Virus record (IMG/VR): IMGVR_UViG_3300045988_003990
Span: 1-5,685 of that record
From: a virus
Strand: one strand, 5' to 3'
DNA: 5,685 bases
Made by a program: the position numbers and the translations under genes. The notes beneath the pieces are model-generated. The model did no database searches and was not told where the DNA came from. It was given only the letters and a program-made list of their open reading frames with translations. Positions 2,451 to 5,584 of the stretch are shown here, one piece after another. Position 1 is the stretch's first letter. The number at the start of each line of letters is the position of its first letter.

Positions 2451-3314
2451 ATGGCAGGTTTATCAACACTCTTAACAGGGCTAAACATCGCCGGTTCAAT
2501 CGCGAGCACAGTAGGACAATTTGCAAACGCCGGCAAGCAAATCGCCGGAGCATTCGGCGGATGGGGTCAGACAGGCAACAGCCAAAGCCAGGGCGGAAGC
2601 ATAAGCCAGGGCGGCGGACACTCCAGCAGCGGAAGTCAAGCGGGGACAAACATACAACAGGTAAATGACTGGCTTAAACAGGCATATGCATACCAAGGAC
2701 AAGAAGCTGCAATGCAAGGTAAATACAACAGTCAAAGTATGCTTAAACAGATGGGATACAATACCTTGTCAGCAATCATGCAAGGCGTATATAACCACAT
2801 CGAGAACTCTGTAGCAATGAACTACAACAGCGCAGAAGCAGCCGCAAACCGTGAATGGCAAGAGCACATGTCAAGCACAGCATACCAGAGAGCCGTTGAA
2901 GATATGAAAAAAGCAGGGCTTAACCCAATCTTAGCTTTTGCAAACGGTGGAGCAAGCACACCGGGCGGAAGTGCAGGAACAATCAGCGGTGCAAGTATGG
3001 GACTAGCAAGCAGCAGCGCGCTAGGAGTAAGCCGGAGCGGTGGATTTGTACCAAACGCATACTCAAGTTCAAGCTGGAGTCAAAGTGACTGGTACAATGC
3101 TGCACAAAGCTGGCAACAGATGCTCAGTACAACACACATGACGCCATACGGACTACAAAAGGCGCTTACAGAAGTCGGAAACGACACAAGCAAGGCCATT
3201 ACGGATGCAACAACAAAGACAAGAAAAGGCACAGAACAGAACAGAAGCATGAAACCACAAGACAAAACAGGGTCCTACGGAGAAAAGAGAAAGCCGGGTG
3301 ATTATTTAAGATGA
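2451..3314 (+). CDS. VP2: Minor capsid / DNA pilot protein VP2 (287 aa).
   Basis: It sits directly after VP1. The N-terminal half is rich in Gly/Ser/Gln. The block NREWQEHMSSTAYQRAVEDMKKAGLNPILAF matches the conserved gokushovirus VP2 motif (..MS.TA.QR...D...AGLNP.LA.). The in-frame codon just before the ATG is TAA, so 2451 is the first possible start. Confidence 0.9.
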   Translation: MAGLSTLLTGLNIAGSIASTVGQFANAGKQIAGAFGGWGQTGNSQSQGGSISQGGGHSSSGSQAGTNIQQVNDWLKQAYAYQGQEAAMQGKYNSQSMLKQMGYNTLSAIMQGVYNHIENSVAMNYNSAEAAANREWQEHMSSTAYQRAVEDMKKAGLNPILAFANGGASTPGGSAGTISGASMGLASSSALGVSRSGGFVPNAYSSSSWSQSDWYNAAQSWQQMLSTTHMTPYGLQKALTEVGNDTSKAITDATTKTRKGTEQNRSMKPQDKTGSYGEKRKPGDYLR

Positions 3315-4330
3315 GTTGTTACAAGCCATTAATAAGGCTGTACAACCCAAAAAATAAAGACATAAGCGGGCGGGTGTATTCACTTGCCCGCTTTTCTAAA
3401 ATAAGCGGGAAACAGCTCAAATATGAAGATCTAATGTACAGAAAAGATGTAATGTTGATACCATGCGGACAGTGCATCGGATGCAGAATCAGACAAAGGG
3501 AAGACTGGACAACACGAATAGAATTAGAAGCACGAGATTATCCAAGAGAAGAAGTTTGGTTTATCACACTTACTTATGATGATGAACACGTACCGGGTAT
3601 GATAGTAAACACAGGCGAAATCATACGAAAAGTGCAGTACGTCTGGAAGCCGGGAAAGAAGCGCCCTGAAAGCGTCCAAACGTTACTGTATACTGACGTT
3701 CAAAAGTTCTTAAAACGCCTTAGAAAGGCTTATAAGGGCAAATTACGCTATTTCATAGCAGGAGAGTACGGAGAACAGACAGCAAGGCCGCATTATCATA
3801 TGATACTGTATGGATGGCAACCGACAGACCTAGAGCACCTATACAAGATACGGCACAACGGATATTTCACGAGTAAATGGCTAACGGACCTATGGGGCAT
3901 GGGTCAAATACAGATAGCGCAAGCAGTGCCAGAAACATATAGATATGTTGCAGGATACGTCACAAAAAAAATGTATGAGATAGACGGTCAAAAAGCAAAC
4001 GCATACTACGAACTAGGGCAACAAAAGCCATTCGCATGTATGAGCCTTAAACCGGGTCTGGGAGATCACTACTATCAAGAACACAAAGCAGAAATCTGGA
4101 GACAAGGATACATCCAATGCACAAACGGCAAACGCGCACAAATTCCACGCTATTATGAAAAAATGATGGAAGCTGAAAACCCACAAAGATTGTGGAGAAT
4201 TAAACAGAACAGACAAGCAACAACCATAGCGGAGAACCGGCTTAAATACGAAAATGCAGACTTTGCAGAACAGTGTAAAACGAAAGAGAGAGTGATAAAG
4301 AAGCAGATGAAGAAAAAAGGGACACTTTAA
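3311..4330 (+). CDS. VP4: Replication initiation protein VP4 (HUH rolling-circle endonuclease, phiX A-like, 339 aa).
   Basis: The ATG overlaps the VP2 stop (ATGA). It carries a Cys cluster PCGQCIGCR, RCR motif 1 FITLTYD, the HUH motif PHYHMILYG, and the double-tyrosine catalytic motif YRYVAGYVTKK (phiX A protein has YVAKYVNKK). Confidence 0.95.
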   Translation: MSCYKPLIRLYNPKNKDISGRVYSLARFSKISGKQLKYEDLMYRKDVMLIPCGQCIGCRIRQREDWTTRIELEARDYPREEVWFITLTYDDEHVPGMIVNTGEIIRKVQYVWKPGKKRPESVQTLLYTDVQKFLKRLRKAYKGKLRYFIAGEYGEQTARPHYHMILYGWQPTDLEHLYKIRHNGYFTSKWLTDLWGMGQIQIAQAVPETYRYVAGYVTKKMYEIDGQKANAYYELGQQKPFACMSLKPGLGDHYYQEHKAEIWRQGYIQCTNGKRAQIPRYYEKMMEAENPQRLWRIKQNRQATTIAENRLKYENADFAEQCKTKERVIKKQMKKKGTL

Positions 4331-4348
4331 CAGTGTCATGGTGTCACC

Positions 4349-4382
4349 TAGCCCAGTACCTATCAAGTAAGGTCCTGGGCTA
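4349..4382 (+). other. Imperfect stem-loop downstream of VP4, with no T-tract.
   Basis: tagcccag (4349..4356) pairs with ctgggcta (4375..4382). An inner stem pairs acct (4358..4361) with aggt (4370..4373) across a t/c mismatch, leaving the 8-nt loop atcaagta. A smaller hairpin, gacact/agtgtc (4321..4337), spans the VP4 stop. Confidence 0.6.
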
Positions 4383-4437
4383 TTGTCATCTAAATGGACC
4401 ATGTATCAGACTATTCAGTCTATAAAATAATCTTATT

Positions 4438-4497
4438 CACACGTGCGCACACGCGCGATAGCGCGCACGCGCGCACGCGCGATATAATATTAACTTG
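4438..4497. repeat. Extremely GC-rich alternating purine/pyrimidine block that ends abruptly in an AT-rich TATAATATTAACTTG motif. It is a candidate replication-origin element.
   Basis: There are two alternating Py/Pu runs of 20-21 nt (4438..4457 cacacgtgcgcacacgcgcg; 4461..4481 gcgcgcacgcgcgcacgcgcg). acgcgcgata repeats at 4451..4460 and 4475..4484, and gcgcacgcgcg repeats at 4463 and 4471. The inverted repeat cgtgcgc (4442..4448) can pair with gcgcacg (4463..4469 or 4471..4477). TAATATTAAC follows at 4485..4494 and AACTTG at 4492..4497. Confidence 0.7.
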
Positions 4498-4519
4498 TTG
4501 TAGACGTAGTAGTAGGCAA

Positions 4520-4694
4520 TGTGGAAAAGTTGAAAAGCACTAAAATTTAACGTTAAAACGTAAATAAAAAACAAAAAACAATGTTGAAAGTTTTGTTGAA
4601 AAAATGTTGAATTGTTGAAAGTTCGTCAAAATAACGAAAATCATTGTGCAACATTTTGTTGAAAACCTGTTGAAAGTGTTGAAAGTGTTGAAAA
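4520..4694 (+). repeat. Iteron-like array of direct TGTTGAAA repeats in three clusters, including a perfect 9-nt tandem triplet.
   Basis: Perfect TGTTGAAA starts at 4582, 4594, 4613, 4657, 4668, 4677 and 4686. One-mismatch copies start at 4520 (TGTGGAAA), 4528 (AGTTGAAA) and 4605 (TGTTGAAT). All copies share one orientation, and the spacings within clusters are 8-12 nt. The triplet is tgttgaaag/tgttgaaag/tgttgaaaa at 4668..4694. An A-rich stretch (4541..4581) separates the upstream pair (4520, 4528) from the first main cluster. Confidence 0.9.
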
Positions 4695-4753
4695 CGCGCA
4701 CAGCGCTTACAAGGAATGGATTATCCGAGCTCCGCATACGCTACGCACGGAAA

Positions 4754-4767
4754 GGCGCTAAAGCGCC
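4754..4767. promoter_or_regulatory. Inverted repeat GGCGC-N4-GCGCC about 20 nt upstream of the -35 element. It could be an operator or a small hairpin.
   Basis: ggcgc (4754..4758), taaa, gcgcc (4763..4767). No T-tract follows it. Confidence 0.35.
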
Positions 4768-4785
4768 ATTCAAACCAAAAAACAA

Positions 4786-4814
4786 TTGACAGACGACAAA
4801 ATATATGATAAAAT
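4786..4814 (+). promoter_or_regulatory. Near-consensus sigma70/sigmaA promoter: TTGACA, 17-nt spacer, TGnTAAAAT (extended -10).
   Basis: TTGACA lies at 4786..4791 and TAAAAT at 4809..4814 with an exact 17-nt spacer. TG lies at 4806..4807 (extended -10). An A-rich UP-like tract lies upstream (4771..4785). It sits at the end of the only long non-coding region and points into the gene string. The predicted transcription start is around 4821. Confidence 0.75.
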
Positions 4815-4839
4815 CCACAATAGAAAGCGAGGGAACAGC

Positions 4840-5229
4840 ATGATTAAAAGTTATATCGTGGACCAAAACGCAAACGAAAAAGTAGGAAAGCACTTTAAAG
4901 TAAAAGAATTTGCGTGCAAAGACGGATCTCAAGCAGTATTTATAGACGAACACCTCGCATCAATCTTAGACATTCTCCGAAACAAAATCGGAAAACCTGT
5001 CATCATCACCAGCGGATACAGAACGCCAGAGTGGAACAAAAGATGTGGAGGAGCAAAGTACAGTTACCATATACGCGGTATGGCTGCAGACATTCGAGTA
5101 AATGGAATGAGCGCAAAAGAAATCGCCAACGAACTGAATGCAATCGTTCCGAATGAATGCGGCATTATCGTATATAAAAGTTGGGTACATTTCGATGTAA
5201 GGACCAGCAAATACAGAAAGGGGGTATAA
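4840..5229 (+). CDS. Zinc metallopeptidase of the M15 family (M15A / Peptidase_M15_3-like cell-wall hydrolase, 129 aa). It is a putative endolysin.
   Basis: ATG at 4840 lies downstream of GAGGG (4829..4833). The motifs are SGYRTPEWN, then SYH-x6-D (H77 at 5068..5070, D84) in HIRGMAADI, then WVHFD (H117). This is the H..D...H zinc-ligand arrangement of the LAS/M15 peptidoglycan peptidases. There is no N-terminal signal peptide or transmembrane (TM) segment. I rejected the track start at 4786 (TTG) because it is the -35 hexamer. Confidence 0.85.
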   Translation: MIKSYIVDQNANEKVGKHFKVKEFACKDGSQAVFIDEHLASILDILRNKIGKPVIITSGYRTPEWNKRCGGAKYSYHIRGMAADIRVNGMSAKEIANELNAIVPNECGIIVYKSWVHFDVRTSKYRKGV

Positions 5230-5230
5230 G

Positions 5231-5353
5231 ATGGCTCTGATTTCCATTAAGGACGTCAAGCAGGCAATCCGCATTATGATGCAGATTCTGGAAAAGCTCG
5301 ACGAAATCTATCACGCGCTGCATGATAGCATCAACGAAAAAGAAAAGGAGTAA
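5231..5353 (+). CDS. Hypothetical small protein (40 aa), absent from the ORF track: MALISIKDVKQAIRIMMQILEKLDEIYHALHDSINEKEKE.
   Basis: The ATG lies 1 nt after the peptidase stop, with AAAGGGG (5218..5224) 6 nt upstream. The stop is at 5351..5353. Its own 3' end carries the AAGGAG SD of the next ORF, so the genes are tightly packed. It looks like a single amphipathic helix with an acidic tail and no TM segment. Confidence 0.6.
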   Translation: MALISIKDVKQAIRIMMQILEKLDEIYHALHDSINEKEKE

Positions 5354-5356
5354 ACC

Positions 5357-5584
5357 ATGGTACACAAAACATGGAACATACGAGACCAGACCACAAAAGA
5401 ACTAGAAATTCTACTCGAACGAAAATACAAAGAAATTGATAGCAATTACAAAATGTTTAAAAAAGCGTCAAGTATCGAAGATGCTAAAAGAATAGTAAAC
5501 GAAACTCGGCAAATAAAAAACTTTGCAAACGACATCGAATTAGAGCTAATGCGAAGGGAGTACAACAATGGCACGACATCGTAA
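5357..5584 (+). CDS. Hypothetical protein (75 aa), highly charged and apparently all-helical or coiled-coil.
   Basis: ATG at 5357 is preceded by AAGGAG (5345..5350) at 6-nt spacing. Its 3' end overlaps the ORF8-like start by 17 nt and contains that gene's SD. I recognise no family motif. Confidence 0.65.
   Translation: MVHKTWNIRDQTTKELEILLERKYKEIDSNYKMFKKASSIEDAKRIVNETRQIKNFANDIELELMRREYNNGTTS

Follow-up and report, generated by a model that had tools for sequence, protein, structure and literature searches.

Results

The DNA analyzed here (the window, 5,685 nucleotides of an IMG/VR virus record) represents a circular gokushovirus genome of 5,630 nt with a 55-nt terminal redundancy. The gene for VP4, the Rep protein, ends at position 4330, and that for an M15 peptidase, identified by matches to Pfam PF08291 (2e-24) and to a PHROG endolysin, starts with the ATG at 4840, behind the Shine-Dalgarno sequence GAGGGA at 4829–4834, 5 nt before the start codon. 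Between them lies a gap of 509 nt (4331–4839), 9.0% of the genome. The original prediction, that about 510 nt lack a convincing ORF in a genome whose genes otherwise abut or overlap, is confirmed, although the gap is not free of ORFs and the genome is only nearly gap-free elsewhere, the other gaps being 39 nt (2412–2450, holding an intrinsic terminator) and about 123 nt across the circle junction. An assembly chimera, which had been named beforehand as an outcome that would overturn the observation, is ruled out because the same arrangement occurs in over 180 independent contigs and in GenBank records. The elements listed in the original prediction (stem-loops, a GC-rich block, an AT-rich motif, iterons, an inverted repeat, and a consensus promoter) are all present.

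The gap contains plus-strand ORFs at 4394–4543 (49 amino acids) and 4646–4789 (47 amino acids, GTG start) and a minus-strand ORF at 4540–4737 (65 amino acids). Relatives often carry a plus-strand ORF of 52–75 amino acids (MTKIIVQHFVENLLKVLKVLK...) in this interval, and some GenBank records annotate a hypothetical protein there, but in the window its ATG is ATA. Across 58 relatives, variability by codon position is flat in these frames (0.115/0.094/0.101 for the plus-strand ORF and 0.094/0.099/0.100 for the minus-strand ORF), whereas VP4 gives 0.044/0.020/0.167, indicating that the ORFs are by-products of a stop-poor repeat. The region is nevertheless constrained; it sits in the same place in about 60 relatives, and its core varies less (about 0.10) than the third codon positions of VP4 (0.167–0.195).

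The region is modular. Directly after the VP4 stop is a 13-bp hairpin (module L, 4349–4382, plus strand; DNA fold −10.6 kcal/mol, z = −3.83), which always keeps gene orientation and is 95–100% paired in 76 unique relatives, with a CG/AU compensatory pair. It has no T-run and was not listed by a terminator scan, and it is therefore not a canonical intrinsic terminator. It is followed by a GC-rich, alternating purine-pyrimidine quasi-palindrome (4437–4482), which can form a hairpin (−16.3 kcal/mol) and marks the left border of module A. In relatives, the 87 nt flanking module A on this side fold at −21.0 kcal/mol on average, as compared with −7.4 ± 3.5 for random 87-nt windows, of which 0.3% fall below −21, although the sequence differs between clades.

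Module A (4483–4695, plus strand) is a 213-nt, AT-rich (about 29% GC) cassette with sharp borders and no excess of structure, folding no better than shuffled sequences (z of +0.56 to +0.71). A long-range pairing in the single-stranded DNA fold (4601–4609 with 4649–4657) is not conserved in relatives. In a survey of 186 contigs, it is in the VP4 orientation in 149 and inverted in 32, and was not detected in 5; it is found at two genome positions, lying inverted between VP2 and VP4 in clade III, and is exchanged between clades. It remains 72–90% identical in nucleotide sequence where VP4 is only 38–40% identical in protein sequence. It should be recognized that 104 of the surveyed contigs were retrieved with a pattern from the conserved block next to the trinucleotide run described below, so that the conservation of this block in that subset is by construction.

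Module A begins with an AT-rich tract, TATAATATTAAC (4483–4494), which is 80–99% conserved in the set retrieved by VP4 similarity and is a candidate unwinding element; the AT-rich sequence, TATAATATTAACTTGTTG, extends for only about 17 nt before the GC palindrome. Next is a trinucleotide run, TTG TTG TAG ACG TAG TAG TAG (4495–4515), that is invariant in a seven-genome cross-clade alignment and in which 5′-TAG-3′, at 4501–4503 and three times at 4507–4515, equals the DnaA-trio consensus, 3′-GAT-5′. The reverse complement of this run, CCTACTACTACGTCTAC, matches CCTATTACTACGTCTAT of S. variabile oriC, the dnaA-dnaN spacers of other Oscillospiraceae, and the published trio of C. difficile, CACCTACTACTATTACTACTATGA (PMC7561715). 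A 4-nt spacer, GCAA (4516–4519), separates the run from the proximal box; the spacer is 4 nt long in 66 of 81 modules parsed, and the published definition allows up to 16 bp with a GC-rich part of about 4 bp.

The proximal boxes, TGTGGAAAA (4520–4528) and AGTTGAAAA, are in tandem (4520–4536). The reverse complement of the first, TTTTCCACA, is one mismatch from the DnaA box consensus TTATCCACA and fits TTWTNCACA, and the oriC of Ruthenibacterium has the same tandem geometry, CTTTCCACATTTCCACA-gccc-CTACTACTAC. A middle cluster (4582–4620) has four boxes, TGTTGAA(A/T), starting at 4582, 4594, 4605, and 4613, and a distal cluster (4657–4694) has four boxes, TGTTGAAA(A/G), starting at 4657, 4668, 4677, and 4686. 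Seven copies of TGTTGAAA are exact, all on the plus strand within 4582–4693, as compared with 0.29 expected in the whole window, and there are ten copies when one-base variants are included. TTTTCAACA is the commonest box in the Oscillospiraceae dnaA-dnaN spacers, and the arrangement TGTTGAAAAcc(c)TGTKGAAAGyGTTGAAA of the distal cluster recurs in box clusters of the S. variabile chromosome. G and T alternate at box position 4 among relatives (153 G and 1,082 T), as they do in the host clusters.

Module B (4696–4780, plus strand) is a structured element comprising a mini-hairpin (4696–4706), hairpin 1 (4724–4751), and hairpin 2, GGCGC-TAAA-GCGCC (4754–4767). It is always in gene orientation and downstream of VP4 and is 80% identical in nucleotide sequence in a phage whose VP4 is 38% identical. 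In its hairpins, 99.6% of cells are paired, four pairs change on both sides, and covariation is 0.210, as compared with 0.103 ± 0.010 in shuffles (0 of 500 as high) and at most 0.061 in slid controls. Beyond it is a σ70/σA promoter (4786–4814), TTGACA-17-TAAAAT with a TG extension (4806–4807), which at 11/12 is the best match in the window. A promoter scoring at least 5/6 in each hexamer lies downstream of the module B hairpin in 47 of 58 relatives, usually 20–30 nt before the M15 ATG, and the promoter is considered real on the basis of this positional conservation.

The order of elements in module A was compared with the basal unwinding system of bacterial oriC. The published requirements for a DnaA box, a short spacer, and at least three trios on the strand where the box reads TGTGGAWAA, lying 5′ of the box, are satisfied, and the strand and order agree with six Oscillospiraceae dnaA-dnaN spacers and with the R1 side of E. 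coli oriC. These published criteria are permissive, because a loose version hits about one site per random 5.6-kb genome, but a strict pattern (a box within one mismatch and up to 16 nt followed by CTACTACTA) occurs once in the genome and in 0 of 300 simulated genomes. The dnaA-dnaN spacers of S. variabile and four other Oscillospiraceae hold arrays of TTTTCAACA and TTTTCCACA, each ending in [box(es)]-gccc-CTA(C/T)TACTACG, and the phage reverse complement reads TTTTCAAC-TTTTCCACA-ttgc-CTACTACTACGTCTAC. V. fastidiosa has the same TTTTCCACA-spacer-trio layout but canonical TGTGGATAA-type boxes. The similarity lies in architecture and motifs, since alignment of the whole module with S. variabile oriC is only modestly significant (score 34; 1 of 500 shuffles as high), and the blastn search of PLSDB that led to the S. 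variabile chromosomal clusters was itself not significant (E = 0.6).

A 24-nt pattern searched in 185,579 genomes in order to find prophages and hosts gave no prophage; one hit is a free phage contig, a relative, binned with Bacteroides sp. CAG:545, and the other is an unrelated coding-like sequence on a 130-kb contig with no phage genes. The best 120 M15 peptidase homologues are almost all on microvirus-sized contigs of up to about 6 kb, and none carries a bacterial name; the single 29-kb contig is an abrupt fusion of an amylase gene to the middle of a phage ORF, which looks like an assembly chimera rather than an integration. A scan of IMG/VR for the canonical TTATCCACA with CTACTACTA gave 79 hits, estimated to be about twice chance, of which only one is a microvirus, and none of the 120 loci from a scan for inverted TTATCCACA...TGTGGATAA pairs had a VP1 homologue. 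A singleton mutation-spectrum test (C>T against G>A) yielded far too few usable sites because the genomes are too diverged.

Discussion

The interpretation in the original prediction, that the region is a dedicated replication or regulatory hub, or a noncoding RNA locus, rather than filler, is partly supported. The region is not filler, its promoter is conserved in position, its motif architecture points to replication, and the gap plus the accessory cassette (about 1.25 kb) does account for the size excess over 4.4-kb gokushoviruses. However, the iterons are best read as host DnaA boxes as opposed to Rep iterons, the hub is a mosaic of a portable module found in either orientation (A) and strand-locked structured modules (L and B), and the noncoding RNA alternative receives no support for the core.

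The structure of module A suggests that it imitates the chromosomal replication origin of the likely host family, Oscillospiraceae (Clostridia), with ten same-strand putative DnaA boxes (TGTGGAAAA and TGTTGAAAR), the one nearest one end being followed by a 4-nt spacer, a run of TAG trios, and a short AT-rich tract. In this view, after conversion of the incoming single strand to the double-stranded replicative form, host DnaA-ATP would occupy the box array, oligomerize from the proximal box onto the trio strand, and melt the adjacent AT-rich DNA, giving the host helicase-loading and priming machinery, and possibly the phage Rep, an entry point. This would boost or sustain replication of the replicative form, and ten boxes per copy would also soak up DnaA. 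An element acting on duplex DNA would explain why the cassette occurs in either orientation and at two genome positions, and dependence on a conserved host protein would explain why it is far better conserved than the phage Rep. The flanking hairpins of modules L and B are strand-specific and are candidates for transcript-end or single-strand replication signals, beyond which the σA promoter and ribosome-binding site would drive the M15 lysis cassette. The noncoding status, conservation, and modularity of the region, the inversion and transposition of module A, the covariation in module B, and the motif-by-motif match to oriC rest directly on the sequence comparisons, whereas DnaA binding, box- and trio-dependent strand separation of the kind assayed with purified DnaA on scaffolds or with P1 nuclease (PMC8287927 and PMC7561715), and any benefit to the phage are inferred.

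We regard this reading as somewhat more likely than not. It is consistent with the mapping of DnaA-dependent unwinding in C. difficile to the dnaA-dnaN region (PMC7561715), and the host family agrees with published affinities of M15 peptidases to Faecalibacterium. However, TTTTCAACA is called a DnaA box only because of its location in predicted Oscillospiraceae origins, the host assignment is tentative, with no prophage hit and one relative placed in a Bacteroides bin, and microviruses are not known to need DnaA. Furthermore, the AT-rich tract is short and abuts a GC hairpin, and the invariant AACTTGTTG next to the trios is more conserved than a generic unwinding element needs to be, so a Rep site may be embedded there.

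The strongest alternative, although unlikely, is that module A is the phage's own rolling-circle (+) origin, in which VP4/Rep nicks in the invariant TATTAACTTGTTGTAG block (compare CAACTTG^ATA of phiX174 and CTTG^ATA of pC194) and binds the TGTTGAAA repeats as iterons, like the nic and bind loci of pMV158-type plasmids, with DnaA having at most a helper role in melting. The block at 4483–4515 is the most conserved part, AACTTG is shared with the phiX174 nick context, iterons next to a nick region are typical of rolling-circle origins, as is a HUH-type Rep gene alongside, and no other origin candidate has been identified in the genome. However, the 30-nt phiX174 origin, CAACTTGATATTAATAACACTATAGACCAC, finds only a chance-level match (best ungapped match 18/30, located in VP4; 100 shuffles average 18.0 with a maximum of 21), and there is no hairpin presenting a nick site. 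The repeats are the same in clades whose Rep is 38–58% identical, and modules are swapped between clades, whereas Rep-specific iterons normally co-diverge with their Rep. Also, A-over-T skew at fourfold sites is the same in clades with either orientation of module A (0.41–0.62), although a change would be expected if module A set the packaged strand; this is not decisive because the skew may reflect coding-strand selection. The similarity of the block to host oriC trios is unexplained under this reading.

A less likely possibility is that module A binds DnaA but is not an origin, acting as a sink, like datA or the DnaA-box clusters of B. subtilis, that blocks host reinitiation or derepresses DnaA-controlled genes, or as a growth-state sensor controlling nearby phage promoters. 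There are ten boxes per copy on a multicopy replicative form, S. variabile keeps similar clusters away from oriC, next to a ribonucleotide reductase gene and holB, and module A lies about 90 nt upstream of the lysis promoter in the window. T5-like phages also carry conserved noncoding DnaA-box arrays that their describer considers unlikely to serve replication (bioRxiv 10.1101/866236). But a sink or operator needs no trios, 4-nt spacer, or AT-rich tract in exact oriC register, and yet these are the most conserved part, and the position of module A relative to promoters is not conserved.

The remaining readings are very unlikely. Missed small proteins (the 52–75-amino acid plus-strand ORF over 4631–4789, with a non-ATG start in the window, or the minus-strand ORF at 4540–4737) recur in many relatives with similar lengths, but neither frame has a third-position excess, frameshifted versions occur in relatives, three frames are open at once because the 9-nt repeat lacks stop codons, the variable residues coincide with covarying hairpin pairs in module B, and the segment is inverted in 32 genomes. 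A structured noncoding RNA locus transcribed from the replicative form would fit the hairpins of module B, whose covariation suits single-stranded DNA as well as RNA, and the folding of the whole 509 nt (z = −3.2), but no Rfam 15 family matches the region even at E up to 1 (the one hit, to isrG elsewhere in the window, is at chance level, 15.4 bits against a gathering score of 100), the core is unstructured and occurs in both orientations, no promoter is evident upstream of module B or module L on the plus strand, and the excess fold energy comes from DNA palindromes that vary in sequence. An actively invertible switch or a selfish miniature mobile element would account for the sharp borders flanked by short GC palindromes (GCGCG/CGCGC), the two orientations and positions, and the cross-clade exchange, but the closest inverted module is 17.5% diverged from any in the VP4 orientation and orientation tracks lineages, so that flips are rare evolutionary events, the genome encodes no recombinase or transposase, there are no terminal inverted repeats inside the conserved unit, and mobility alone does not explain the oriC-type content.

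The closest counterparts are the unwinding systems of bacterial origins (B. subtilis incC, C. difficile oriC2, and the Oscillospiraceae dnaA-dnaN spacers), which share the order of elements on the same strand, the box variants TTTTCCACA and TTTTCAACA, and, in Clostridia, a nearly identical trio block (CCTACTACTA...). Module A differs in being located in a 5.6-kb single-stranded DNA phage rather than next to dnaA, in being a single unit rather than a bipartite origin, and in having all ten boxes in one direction. The T5-like arrays, in the injection-stop region, are likewise conserved, noncoding, likened to oriC, and better conserved than nearby genes, with a fixed arrangement of consensus and variant boxes including the C-to-A variant TTATCAACA, but they have paired boxes inside inverted repeats, no trio or unwinding unit, a double-stranded DNA genome, and a proposed role in arrest of DNA injection. 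In phiX174 and G4, of the same virus family, the signals for complementary-strand synthesis (the n′/PriA site and the G4 complementary-strand origin) lie in intergenic hairpins, and modules L and B could be counterparts; strand-specific structure kept by compensatory change is seen in module B and partly in module L, but any role in priming is conjectural. Module A is unstructured and independent of orientation, unlike single-strand origins, and no DnaA involvement is known for phiX174 or G4. Enterogokushoviruses carry a recognition site for host machinery, dif/XerCD, in a noncoding region (PMC7062461), but no dif-like site is present here (best scores of 20/28, 19/28, and 17/28 for the proteobacterial consensus, the Firmicute consensus, and E. 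coli dif), and the host protein involved would be DnaA, not XerCD.

No DnaA-box element in Microviridae was found in the literature searched. Microviruses are textbook rolling-circle replicons, thought to need only their Rep plus host elongation and priming factors, and a conserved oriC-type DnaA module would add a second, host-initiator-dependent layer to their replication. A more far-reaching possibility, which is tentative, is that gokushoviruses of the mammalian gut carry a portable, self-contained mimic of the host origin with which the replicative form can be opened and replicated by host DnaA like a minichromosome, giving an integrase-free way to persist as an episome (pseudolysogeny) and to compete with the host origin for DnaA; this would be the first DnaA-dependent origin in Microviridae. 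Such a module would offer a concrete mechanism for the unexplained long-term persistence of gokushoviruses in the gut. Circular phage DNA is known to persist without integration (PMC7062461). Origin mimicry would also be a new kind of host-prediction signal, here pointing to Oscillospiraceae, and would give a testable host assignment for an abundant uncultured phage group through the matching of phage origin motifs to bacterial oriC motifs. Finally, the region shows that a noncoding module, of a kind missed by annotation pipelines and gene-based phylogenies, can be more conserved and more mobile than the core genes of the phage.

Genome Organization and Properties of the VP4-M15 Gap

The genome is that of a circular gokushovirus of 5,630 nt with a 55-nt terminal redundancy, in which all genes lie on the + strand in the order VP5 (78-317), VP3 scaffold (190-747), VP1 capsid (744-2411), VP2 pilot (2451-3314), VP4/Rep (3311-4330), and M15 peptidase/endolysin (4840-5229), followed by two small ORFs (5231-5353 and 5357-5584). 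It belongs to a large group of mammalian-gut gokushoviruses of 5.4-6.1 kb that includes GenBank KT264791, KX513868, and the MG945xxx series. The two small ORFs after the M15 peptidase, of 40 and 75 amino acids, have no Pfam or PHROG match, but their position makes them candidates for a holin or spanin-like lysis partner. Two in-frame tandem repeats with units of 21 and 12 nt lie inside the VP3 scaffold gene (652-731), and a canonical intrinsic terminator (AGCCCGGAGAAATCCGGGCT followed by ATTTTTT, at 2422-2450) fills the 39-nt gap between VP1 and VP2, suggesting attenuation after the capsid gene.

The gap between VP4 and M15 is 509 nt, or 9% of the genome, and holds only short ORFs. The observation in the original prediction, of a long stretch without a convincing ORF, packed with stem-loops, a GC-rich block, an AT-rich motif, iterons, an inverted repeat, and a consensus promoter, is upheld, and each of the listed elements is present and statistically supported. 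Relatives often have a + strand ORF of 52-75 amino acids and a minus-strand ORF of 65 amino acids over the repeat array, but across 58 relatives retrieved by VP4 similarity the variability by codon position is flat in these frames, whereas VP4 gives 0.044/0.020/0.167. The core of the gap varies by about 0.10 per site, which is less than the third codon positions of VP4 (0.167-0.195), and it is therefore non-coding but constrained. The gap is conserved in position and ranges from 437 to 993 nt; the extra length lies downstream of about 4780, where relatives (L001-L082 in our survey) carry, between the structured element that we term module B and M15 (equivalent to about 4780-4839), one or two additional small + strand ORFs, for example MMHKYELRSWNNDDTMTTVLKINDEPKNAKKRAREYANEHKGIYSLYKVEE (60 amino acids) and MTLKSYRIEMTN.... 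Many of these sit behind their own consensus promoter, and the interval is a hot spot for accessory genes, which the present genome lacks. The interpretation in the original prediction, that the region is a dedicated replication or regulatory hub or a non-coding RNA locus, is supported in part.

Modular Structure of the Gap

The region is made up of five modules. Module L (4349-4382) is a 13-bp hairpin (z = -3.8) with one compensatory pair among 76 unique relatives. It is followed by a GC-rich palindrome of alternating purine-pyrimidine sequence (4437-4482), by module A (4483-4695), and by module B (4696-4780), which contains two hairpins supported by covariation: they are 99.6% paired, four pairs have changes on both sides, and the covariation score is 0.210 against 0.103 +/- 0.010 in shuffles (0 of 500 as high), with slid controls reaching at most 0.061. 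The last module comprises a TG-extended TTGACA-17-TAAAAT promoter (4786-4814) and the ribosome-binding site GAGGGA; an equivalent promoter follows the module B hairpin in 47 of 58 relatives.

Module A is a discrete, portable unit. Pairwise blastn comparisons show that the exact segment 4483-4695 is inverted in several close relatives while both flanks remain direct, and in 186 non-redundant contigs module A has the orientation of VP4 in 149, is inverted in 32, and was not detected in 5. It should be noted that 104 of the surveyed contigs were retrieved with a pattern taken from the trinucleotide block of module A described below, so that statements on the conservation of that block rest on the set retrieved by VP4 similarity and on GenBank blastn hits. 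In a clade whose VP4 is only 38-40% identical, module A lies inverted between VP2 and VP4, yet it is 72-87% identical in DNA, and one such phage (L117) carries a module of the type found in the present genome at 90% identity. The modules cluster mostly by clade, with clear exchanges, but the closest pair of inverted and VP4-oriented modules is 17.5% diverged, so that flips are rare evolutionary events and not switching. In contrast, modules L and B never flip and always follow VP4. Strong hairpins of unrelated sequence flank module A, the upstream 87 nt folding at -21.0 kcal/mol on average against -7.4 +/- 3.5 for random windows, whereas module A itself folds no better than shuffled sequences.

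Resemblance of Module A to Bacterial Replication Origins

On the + strand, module A consists in order of TATAATATTAAC, the trinucleotide run TTG TTG TAG ACG TAG TAG TAG, the spacer GCAA, TGTGGAAAA, and (A)GTTGAAAA, and eight more TGTTGAAA(A/G/T) putative boxes follow in two clusters, all in the same direction. The trinucleotide 5'-TAG-3' is the DnaA-trio consensus (3'-GAT-5'), and TGTGGAAAA is the reverse complement of TTTTCCACA, which fits TTWTNCACA. The arrangement satisfies the published definition of the basal unwinding system, which is a box, a spacer of at most 16 bp with a GC part of about 4 bp, and at least three trios. A strict version of this pattern occurs once in the genome and never in 300 simulated genomes, but it should be recognized that a loose version is common by chance.

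Comparison with bacterial origins began with a weak hit in PLSDB, which led to Subdoligranulum variabile, whose intergenic clusters mix TTTTCCACA and TGTTGAAAA in the same local arrangement as positions 4657-4693 of the phage. These chromosomal clusters (L225, OY725881, positions 2427-2562; L224, OY725878, positions 676-790) lie outside oriC; one sits between a class II ribonucleotide reductase gene and an unknown ORF followed by holB, and the other sits upstream of an ArsR/SdpR-like regulator and SdpI. They may be members of a DnaA regulon, and although the records are labeled as plasmids, they look chromosomal. The dnaA gene of S. variabile was located by tblastn, and four more Oscillospiraceae dnaA-dnaN spacers were retrieved through DnaA homologues, together with that of Vescimonas. 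The S. variabile spacer and those four hold arrays of putative TTTTCAACA/TTTTCCACA boxes, and each ends in [box(es)]-gccc-CTA(C/T)TACTACG followed by AT-rich DNA, whereas Vescimonas has the same [TTTTCCACA]-spacer-trio layout but canonical TGTGGATAA-type boxes. The reverse complement of the phage sequence is TTTTCAAC-TTTTCCACA-ttgc-CTACTACTACGTCTAC-AACAAGTTAATATTATA; S. variabile has CCTATTACTACGTCTAT, a 15/17 match that includes the same CGT interruption. Whole-module similarity to any one oriC is nevertheless modest. In Clostridium difficile, DnaA-dependent unwinding was mapped to the dnaA-dnaN spacer, and the published trio there is CACCTACTACTATTACTACTATGA.

The inferred host family, Oscillospiraceae, agrees with the published affinity of gokushovirus M15 peptidases to Faecalibacterium, but it is an inference from these similarities. 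It conflicts with the binning of a complete 5.7-kb gokushovirus contig (L222, CAVKUS010000079.1) with Bacteroides sp. CAG:545; this phage, with VP1 at 40% and VP4 at 38% identity, has an inverted module A between VP2 and VP4 and module B after VP4, and its assignment is probably a binning artifact. A 29-kb spore-former contig (L233, ENA ERZ1742712 NODE_713), in which an alpha-amylase gene is fused abruptly, at about 9900-10419, to the middle of a phage small ORF followed by M15, ends at that point and has a coverage of about 6x; it looks like an assembly chimera and not an integration. A 7.3-kb contig filed as viral (L257, IMGVR_UViG_3300012201_000155) carries, at 1830-2010, six TTATCCACA-type boxes followed by CTACTACTAC; it appears to be a complete canonical oriC-like unit and may be a plasmid or a fragment of a chromosomal origin misfiled as viral.

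Proposed Role of Module A

The non-coding character, constraint, modularity, and inversion of the region, the covariation in module B, and the correspondence of motifs with bacterial origins are results of the sequence comparisons, whereas DnaA binding and duplex opening by module A are inferred from them by analogy. The interpretation that we favor, with moderate confidence, is that module A is a host-DnaA-binding, duplex-opening cassette that acts on the replicative form. In this view, an element of duplex DNA explains its freedom of orientation and position, and dependence on a conserved host protein explains why it is better conserved than Rep and why its repeats do not co-diverge with Rep. 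The cassette may start theta-type replication of the replicative form, or open DNA for Rep, or chiefly titrate DnaA; the tight conservation of the trios and the spacer argues for real unwinding.

The coding strand is strongly A-rich and T-poor (47% A and 12.5% T at fourfold-degenerate sites of VP1 in 180 relatives, with an AT skew of 0.41-0.62), the opposite of the T-rich viral strand of phiX174, and this could reflect either mutation bias of a packaged strand or selection on the mRNA. The A-over-T skew at fourfold sites is the same whichever way module A points, which argues, although not decisively, that module A does not define the packaged strand. In this interpretation the strand-locked, covarying module B next to VP4 is the better candidate for the Rep-linked or single-strand signal.

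Full-text searches of the literature found no report of DnaA boxes or trios in Microviridae. The nearest precedents are the DnaA-box arrays in the injection-stop region of T5 and the dif sites of enterogokushoviruses; what differs here is that a unit of the oriC type appears to be present in an unexpected replicon. An unrelated microvirus (L305, IMGVR_UViG_3300010049_000390; VP1 38% identical) has a 64-nt intergenic region just before VP1 that forms, at 563-607, a 16-bp hairpin (z = -5.1) whose stem is a putative DnaA box paired with its complement (TTATCCACAGGGC / GCCCTGTGGGTAA) and whose loop holds CTACTACTA. This would give a double-stranded DnaA box next to single-stranded trios on the single-stranded DNA genome, reminiscent of the DnaA-dependent "ABC primosome" sites, and the use of DnaA in Microviridae may therefore be wider.
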